From Blastocatellales bacterium (lineage in GTDB: Bacteria > Acidobacteriota > Blastocatellia > RBC074): DNA of 64,000 nucleotides. Shown here piece after piece: positions 46,175 through 46,719 of this stretch. The translations under genes and the position numbers were made by a program. The notes beneath the pieces are model-generated. The model was not told the origin of the DNA. It saw only the letters and a list, made by a program, of their open reading frames with translations, and did no database searches. Each line of letters opens with the position of its first letter. The first letter of the stretch is position 1. The stretch is from contig JBFWUF010000003.1 of assembly GCA_050247435.1 (NCBI GenBank), positions 8,564-72,563 on the forward strand. Reading direction: 5' to 3'.

Positions 46175-46719
46175 GTTGCGGAGCAGGCCGGGCGCCTGCC
46201 CGCGCTTGGTGTAGTTTCAAATCTCAAAATCTGAAATTTGTGATGTAGCCTTGCGCGGGAGGAAAGTCCGAACACCATAGGACAGCAGGCTGGCTAACGG
46301 CCAGGCGGGGCGACCCGACGGAATAGTGCAACAGAGAACAGACAGCCCGAACGCGCTCGGGCGCGGATTTCAAATTTGAAATTTGAGGTTTGAAATGCGC
46401 GCCTGAGCGGCGTGGGCGATGGTGAAACGGTGAGGTAAAGGCTTCACCAGCGAGTCTGGCGACAGGCTCGGCTAGGCAAACCCCCTGCGGTGCAAGGCCA
46501 AATAGGGGAGCGGTATTGAAGGCTGTCCGCTTCAGTCCGCGCCGCGCTCGAATCTCAAATTCCGTAACTGGAATTTGAGATTCGAGCGCGGCGTGGCTCG
46601 CTTCCGGGTAGGCCGCACGAGCGGCGCAGTAATGCGCCGCCAAGATGAATGGGCGCCGCTCGTTTCCGGCTTCGGCCGCAAGCGGGTACAGAATTCGGCT
46701 TATAGGCCAGCTCCGCAAC
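46175..46719 (+). ncRNA. rnpB: RNase P RNA (type A), enlarged
   Basis: P1 gttgcggagcaggcc/ggccagctccgcaac, GAGGAAAGTCC, AGTGCAACAGAGA, GGTGAAACGG, GGCAAACCCC...GCAAGGCCAAATAG, ACAGAATTCGGCTTATAG. Confidence 0.96.

Follow-up and report, generated by a model that had tools for sequence, protein, structure and literature searches.

Why does an acidobacterial RNase P RNA exceed its usual length by about 150 bases, and what is the surplus made of? The question is raised by the rnpB gene within a 64,000 nt stretch (the window) of contig JBFWUF010000003.1 from a Blastocatellales bacterium. The peripheral helices of RNase P RNA, a textbook ribozyme, are regarded as slow to vary. Judged by sequence, the locus specifies a normal type A RNase P ribozyme. 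The covariance model RF00010 (cmscan) matched nt 46180-46718 of the plus strand (539 nt) with 264 bits, against a gathering score of 100 (E 5.6e-85), in a complete alignment covering model positions 1-367 (class A). Helix P1 can be extended, as read from the sequence, to nt 46175-46184/46710-46719, giving a gene of 545 nt (nt 46175-46719). The conserved P4 strands (GAGGAAAGUCC ... ACAGAAnnCGGCUUA) are present as GGAGGAAAGUCCG from nt 46258 and ACAGAAUUCGGCUUAUAG from nt 46689. The 5' strand of the predicted P6 pseudoknot, GGACAGC (nt 46280-46286, plus strand), has a 7-nt complement in GCUGUCC (nt 46522-46528), held by the loop (nt 46522-46529) of the P17 hairpin (nt 46515-46536, plus strand). 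The aligned P9, P14 and P18 hairpins carry the GNRA loops GCGA, GCGA and GUAA (L9, L14 and L18; cmscan alignment), and such loops serve tertiary docking in RNase P RNA.

A -10-like hexamer, TATACT (nt 46158-46163, plus strand), lies 12-17 nt 5' of the RNA start as a putative promoter element, and many relatives have GTTATACT, GCTATACT or GCTATAAT equally far upstream of rnpB; a consensus promoter scan of the upstream region returned no full sigma-70 match. In one relative (G005, locus L014), three copies of GCAATCC, a member of the AATCCGC heptamer family, are found directly upstream of the TATACT box. Further upstream, a terminator-like hairpin with a T run (nt 46100-46121, plus strand) closes a two-component operon, and downstream of rnpB are genes for a TPR protein and an NHL-repeat protein of 2,174 residues. 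These neighbours have no link to RNase P.

The surplus is located in P3, P12 and the hairpin 3' of P17. Compared with the model, the P3 loop measures 41 nt (consensus, 4), P12 has about 50 nt extra, and a long insert follows P17. The lengthened P3 (nt 46199-46259, plus strand) includes a heptamer part at nt 46213-46244, reading UUUCAAA, UCUCAAA, (A)UCUGAAA and UUUGUGA. In the lengthened P12 (nt 46345-46417, plus strand), a heptamer array (nt 46364-46396; AUUUCAA, AUUUGAA, AUUUGAG, GUUUGAA) sits atop a GC-rich stem. The third is the class-typical hairpin 3' of P17 (nt 46537-46596, plus strand), whose heptamer part (nt 46547-46586) consists of UCGAAUC and UCAAAUU followed by AAUUUGA and GAUUCGA. 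All three heptamer parts were detected by a degenerate periodic scan, which required at least 13 of 14 positions to fit RATYTSA; TRF reported within rnpB the P12 array only (nt 46367-46396, period 7, 4.3 copies, 78% matches, score 39). Their G+C contents are 25%, 27% and 40%, against 67% in the remainder of the gene.

Each insert region, folded alone, forms a single extended helix. Folding energies were -27.6 kcal/mol for P3 (nt 46199-46259, z -5.8), -50.1 kcal/mol for P12 (nt 46345-46417, z -8.2) and -71.3 kcal/mol for the P16/P17 region together with the extra helix (z -10.2). The P3 and P12 stems contain bulges and G·U pairs; the hairpin 3' of P17 is a perfect 27-bp helix (nt 46537-46563/46570-46596) with the loop GUAACU. 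The unit RATYTSA is AU-rich and quasi-palindromic, its forms TTTGARA and TYTCAAA being reverse complements that differ solely at the central base. Where one form runs for several units and its complement takes over, as in rnpB, the insert thus folds back on itself and lengthens the helix coaxially. The first-pass annotation had described an enlarged type A rnpB of about 545 nt with one heptamer family at P3, P12 and an extra helix, and the model match, the P1 extension, the periodic scan and the folds all bear this out. The coordinates it gave for the 27-bp hairpin were exact, and its derivation of P6 from the P17 loop stands as a pairing, with positions that were off by one. The notion of an additional element had to be dropped: a short hairpin occurs 3' of P17 in every dissected relative of the class, so that the post-P17 helix is not novel and has merely been lengthened here.

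The heptamers belong to a family dispersed throughout the genome of this organism (G000; 8.8 Mb, assembled in 156 contigs). The periodic scan returned 394 segments (388 clusters); in the same genome reversed but not complemented it returned 33. Three-unit matches numbered 37, against none with the reversed pattern. At a threshold of at least 20 of 21 matched positions, the genome holds 21 arrays; a 3.2 Mb Markov control gave none, and the corresponding real contigs six. A stretch of 539 nt would be expected to hold 0.024 clusters at the whole-genome rate, or 0.054 at the rate of noncoding sequence only, compared with three observed in rnpB (P of three or more, 2e-6 to 2.5e-5), so the concentration of three sites in one gene, to which the first reading had drawn attention, is far beyond chance. 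For clusters of at least 21 nt, rnpB contains three of 41, when about 0.0025 would be expected in 539 nt (arithmetic from the counts), and for those of at least 25 nt it contains three of 25. Intergenic sequence accounts for 12.9% of bases but 29% of clusters, and for 60% of clusters of at least 25 nt. These values derive from a crude codon-usage gene call (6,332 genes, 87% coding), used in place of a spanning-ORF test that is undiscriminating in so GC-rich a genome, and the figure of 29% is a lower bound because called gene starts were over-extended. Only eight of these 41 long clusters resemble hairpins, with the two strongest hairpins of the RATYTSA family both in rnpB; survival in this gene seems to be limited to self-complementary array arrangements.

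Relatives were then compared. In a sample of 41 genomes of the same class, rnpB gave a match above the cut-off in 35 and was full-length in 34 (383 to 589 nt); RATYTSA arrays were detected by the periodic scan in 11 of the 35. Carriage was commoner where the family is present genome-wide, with 10 of the 17 genomes that have at least seven three-unit matches genome-wide, versus one of the 18 that have fewer. Family abundance alone is nevertheless no predictor, as rnpB is array-free in G019, G034, G014 and G008 despite 307, 90, 58 and 34 matches, respectively. The reversed-pattern control was near zero across the class genomes, with the exception of G010. That genome returned 825 matches to the reversed pattern (ASTYTAR x3), an indication of another, abundant heptamer family, and the P16/17 region of its rnpB measures 112 nt and is AT-rich at the tip.

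The inserts of relatives were placed by conserved anchors and three further cmscan alignments. Within the same genus (g1), five other genomes bear inserts at matching helices; the inserts are heptameric in G001, G002, G003 and G007 and degenerate in G005, and the array of G003 was placed in P12 by its cmscan alignment. Heptamers are also carried by rnpB in other genera of the host's family (G011, G018 and G024) and in two other families, namely in G026 and G030 of genus g19, in G033 and, in degenerate form, in G037. Arrays occupy P3 in five genera, P12 in g1 and g19, and the post-P17 hairpin in g1, g5 and g12. In g19 they are found, in addition, in the P13 loop, in a self-folding hairpin of the P16/P17 junction and in the P19 hairpin, together with a variant heptamer in the P9 loop; the rnpB of G026, at 589 nt, carries six inserts. 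Since the helices differ by lineage, at least six or seven separate gains are needed even at one gain per site, their independence being argued from the differing sites. The first-pass annotation had proposed that the repeat targets hairpin tips, which is correct for most sites (apical loops) and incorrect for the g19 array that forms its own hairpin in the P16/P17 junction. It had also named, as a finding that would refute it, relatives with helices of the same length that lack the 7-nt periodicity, and it withstood this check: same-genus inserts proved to be heptamer-periodic, and the helices of distant relatives are short.

Beyond the class, a phylum-wide sample of 151 genomes gave 142 with a match above the cut-off, most full-length genes measuring 340-440 nt. 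The 18 longest rnpB genes fetched from outside the class, a selection that passed over about 90 genes of intermediate length, have inserts that are GC-rich and non-heptameric. None of 48 loci scanned outside the class has an array inside rnpB, and two have one within 100 nt. At loci L176 and L187 (genomes G139 and G117, family f38), RATYTSA-family arrays lie within about 100 nt outside rnpB. In another family of the phylum, the rnpB of G178 (L198) has a P16/17 region of 218 nt, a long palindrome with an AT-rich interior that has the look of a MITE-like insertion. The tallies of phylum-wide lengths, three-unit matches, rnpB arrays and Y1_Tnp take in four genomes flagged as unpublished (G009, G063, G087 and G182), on which no specific claim rests. 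Two genomes chosen because they hold the exact repeat extend the picture: the 503-nt rnpB of a Blastocatellia-titled genome has arrays in P3, and that of Microcoleus asticus has (GATTTGA)x3.5 in P12. Exact (GATTTGA)x3 occurs in at least 122 stretches from many phyla.

The P12 tip of G002, a member of the same genus, is occupied by a REP-like palindrome instead of heptamers (L029 1678-1741). Its 29-nt core matches the G002 genome at 80 places, most of which form inverted pairs spaced 30-60 nt apart; by blast it has 41 hits in G000, all outside rnpB. Two unrelated families of hairpin repeats have therefore reached the same helix tip, which argues against a function specific to the heptamer. The heptamer arrays resemble REP/BIME elements, which are associated with RAYT (Y1) transposases, in being dispersed, hairpin-forming and noncoding, but they differ in having no fixed ends or length and no pattern of co-occurrence with Y1. 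A RAYT/Y1 transposase was considered as the driver of the arrays and rejected: PF01797 is present in 36 of 41 relatives, zero-array genomes included, and its counts do not track the arrays. Y1_Tnp was not found in the array-richest genome, G019 (73% complete).

The closest known parallel to the heptamer inserts is from cyanobacteria. STRR heptamer repeats reportedly occur in helix P12 of rnpB in heterocyst-forming cyanobacteria, a finding credited to Vioque in 1997. The precedent, already invoked in the first-pass annotation, is apt, in that the Microcoleus P12 carries GATTTGA, the very unit of the acidobacterial arrays. In both cases, tandem 7-nt units of a genome-wide family are found inside rnpB and lengthen a peripheral helix. 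The acidobacterial inserts share with STRR elements the tandem 7-nt units and the genome-wide dispersal, but neither the restriction to P12 nor a heterocystous host: they occur in Acidobacteriota, at P3, P12 and the post-P17 hairpin here and at up to six sites in relatives, consist of inverted runs and so fold into hairpins by themselves, and recur in at least seven genera in differing helices. What is new relative to the cyanobacterial P12 case is thus the phylum, the several sites, the hairpin arrangement and the recurrent gains. A literature search, confined largely to non-subscription journals and to main texts, returned no description of heptamer-bearing rnpB in Acidobacteriota.

The explanation we regard as probable is that STRR-like arrays have lodged at tolerant helix tips of rnpB, as a multi-site acidobacterial variant of the cyanobacterial case. 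Dispersed, AU-rich, quasi-palindromic arrays (RAUYUSA) would have colonised three solvent-exposed helix ends (those of P3, P12 and the post-P17 hairpin); neither the P4 core nor the P6 pseudoknot would be affected, nor would the GNRA loops L9, L14 and L18. The arrays may be seeded and resized through replication slippage, and intrastrand template switching may perfect the palindromes. Persistence in rnpB would depend on tips (P3, P12, P15-17 and P19) that tolerate any length, with RNA folding then filtering the arrays that sit there; the inserts would be transcribed, kept base-paired and presumably retained in the mature RNA. Their effect on catalysis is most likely nil or, at the most, slightly stabilising. 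P12 has been called dispensable in cyanobacteria (PMC2858038), and a published alignment left P3, P12, P15-17 and P19 unaligned because they show too little conservation (PMC4264200).

Heptamer repeats of another kind have been described by MacGregor (2015; PMC4679880), whose TAACTGA-type direct repeats are reported from Beggiatoaceae, Cyanobacteria and Bacteroidetes. According to that source, heptamers are the commonest of the 5-11-nt repeats in many bacterial genomes, with polymerase slippage proposed as the cause, and TAACTGA recurs across phyla by a vehicle of transfer that is not known. The parallel lies in a single heptamer forming short, mostly intergenic arrays in distant phyla. Unlike the rnpB arrays, however, TAACTGA repeats are direct and lie upstream of start codons, with a proposed role in translation (PMC4679880), and RNase P is not mentioned in the text of the article.

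Whether the inserts behave as RNA was assessed by comparing sense and antisense folds of 28 inserts, obtained from 12 of 14 genomes submitted. The sense strand was the more stable in 23, equally stable in three (perfect palindromes) and less stable in two. Sense folds contained 48 G·U pairs and antisense folds 12, counts that include orthologous and thus non-independent inserts. A DNA palindrome with no role as RNA should be symmetric, and the bias therefore indicates that the hairpins are maintained as RNA, although transcription-coupled C-to-T mutation on the sense strand could be partly responsible. The three perfect palindromes lack any G·U pair, a hint of processes acting on the DNA, and show no trace of selection on the RNA at those sites. 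In RNA run X10, contigs join a heptamer array directly to the 5' strand of P4 at depths of 62 to 748, which hints that P3 arrays are contained in transcripts of relatives. Runs X10 and X14 yielded no reads of this organism, only conserved core segments, and these come from other organisms, as the joints skip the inserts and have other letters between.

Other stable RNAs provide a second comparison. Arrays were absent from tmRNA in all six of the carrier genomes, and the SRP RNA and 6S RNA of G000 are array-free and of normal size, by which the idea that arrays are a general trait of stable RNAs was ruled out. The rRNAs are missing from the G000 assembly; among relatives, the 16S rRNA of G011 has a normal length and no large insert, and none was found in the first ~2,370 positions of the G030 23S rRNA. 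That three of the 41 long clusters fall in one gene of 539 nt, and that the other stable RNAs are array-free, counts against the inserts being purely neutral passengers.

It is possible, if unlikely, that the expansions have been selected because the lengthened AU-rich helices are of use to RNase P, for instance by stabilising the fold or by offering a platform to an extra protein such as a heptamer-binding one of the cold-shock type. The P3, P12 and P16 helices of archaeal and eukaryal RNase P RNAs bind proteins. Selection would fit the strong enrichment in rnpB and the absence of arrays from tmRNA, SRP RNA and 6S RNA, as well as the fact that separate genera, and a genome of a second class (the Blastocatellia-titled one, in P3), have arrays at the same helices, the like sizes of P3 inserts across lineages (~30-48 nt) and the G·U bias of the sense strand, a sign of constraint at the RNA level. 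CspB, moreover, has been reported to bind heptamer repeats with one protein per unit (PMC4679880). Against this, the arrays are base-paired, cold-shock proteins bind single strands, and no candidate protein was identified. Arrays are lacking in 24 of 35 relatives, and in G005 neither P3 nor P12 has an array at threshold. Sequence and unit number turn over rapidly within the genus, and this turnover and the unrelated REP-like palindrome in P12 of G002 both argue against a sequence-specific role such as protein docking.

A bolder form of the same idea, to which we give less credence still, is that heptamer hairpins have repeatedly been recruited to rnpB, up to six per molecule, as functional modules, either as docking platforms for protein or as pairing partners for precursor spacers. 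If true, it would take a bacterial RNase P part of the way to the protein-rich or guide-assisted enzymes of archaea and eukaryotes. The case is of wider significance in that one repeat family has entered rnpB at least six or seven times in a single class, and a second, unrelated palindrome has landed there too. The STRR/heptamer-repeat phenomenon is extended from cyanobacteria to Acidobacteriota, with the unit GATTTGA present in many phyla. The relatives also constitute a natural series of insert-bearing and insert-free ribozymes for studying the tolerance for extra helices, retention versus excision, and the accumulation of arrays in rnpB versus tmRNA.

Excision is itself an alternative. The intervening sequences of 23S rRNA are located at helix tips and are removed by RNase III. 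They have in common with the rnpB inserts an extended stem-loop that replaces a peripheral terminal loop of an essential RNA, and a patchy occurrence among relatives; the rnpB inserts differ in being built from a genome-wide heptamer repeat. If they were of this type, RNase III would cut the duplexes out, and the active RNase P RNA would consist of two to four fragments. The long duplex at a helix tip that characterises intervening sequences is present here as the perfect 27-bp helix, G007 and G011 have perfect duplexes of 19 bp, and duplexes of such size are cleaved by RNase III. Conservation of the stems would likewise be expected if excision requires folding. The P3 and P12 stems, however, contain bulges and G·U pairs, and the X10 contigs that join an array to the P4 strand suggest that P3 arrays stay attached in relatives. 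We know of no fragmented bacterial RNase P RNA, and consider this explanation very unlikely.

A yet smaller chance attaches to the proposal that rnpB arrays act as a built-in guide sequence, pairing with like arrays in precursor transcripts and so tethering the enzyme to its substrate. The quasi-palindromic unit makes every array of the family complementary to every other, and a few arrays adjoin tRNA genes. One in G000 (C70:438-468, L248) fills the 44-nt spacer between two genes of a four-tRNA cluster, starting right after an encoded CCA. The rRNA operon spacer of G030 (L229) has three arrays (675-705, 820-850 and 1253-1276), of which two start 2 nt past the CCA of tRNA-Ile and of a tRNA with a CAU anticodon, and the third precedes the 23S gene. 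On the other hand, the rnpB arrays are locked in stable local hairpins, and most arrays lie far from RNase P substrates: only one of the 41 long G000 clusters is in a tRNA spacer. No array was found in the rRNA spacer of array-rich G011, compared with the three of G030, so arrays do not generally concentrate in the spacers of stable-RNA operons. Within 50 nt of tRNA genes there are three of the 388 G000 clusters, against 0.64 expected, a number too small to weigh and possibly including chance matches inside tRNA genes. When the surroundings of 20 more long intergenic arrays in G000 were searched for known RNA families, only a tRNA cluster emerged; microRNA-type matches near arrays fell below gathering scores and were discarded as generic hairpin matches.

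That the inserts are artefacts of assembly or binning can be dismissed almost with certainty, even if the assembly is in many contigs (156) and repeats often misassemble. Independently built Logan contigs span the inserts with zero differences, all three in DNA run X1 (possibly the source sample) and two in X3. Five other members of the genus, and other genera besides, have orthologous inserts, and the covariance-model alignment is intact on both sides of the inserts. The first-pass annotation had named read mapping as the test for such artefacts, and the enlargement of rnpB by three heptamer inserts is confirmed as real. It is best seen, as argued above, as the lodging of dispersed arrays at helix tips that tolerate them.

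RATYTSA is one of several heptamer families in this genome. TRF listed 848 period-7 rows for G000, belonging to several distinct families, of which AATCCGC (157 rows), AACCACC (46), AATGCGG (34), AAAACTG (33), AAATATG (33), AAGACAG (25) and AAATCTC (24) are examples, giving a heptamer landscape that is STRR-like yet outside cyanobacteria. A 78-nt perfect hairpin at C19:48349-48426 is composed of inverted GATGTCA arrays, in which a variant unit is mirrored in both arms, and it lies 3 nt from the called genes on either side. The window has further tandem repeats between nt 19937 and 24810, which include AATAGCC x3.4 (nt 19937-19960), TATTGGA x4.7 (nt 20393-20425), a perfect 15-mer x3 (nt 21891-21935), a perfect GATTGCG x4.7 (nt 22709-22741) and 8-mers (nt 22754-22783 and 24777-24810); GATTGCG is a member of AATCCGC, the commonest heptamer family of the genome. 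Lastly, at nt 56613-56742 a purine-rich block of GAGGGA-type repeats is followed by a block of CTCTCCCA repeats, and the two could form a long hairpin.
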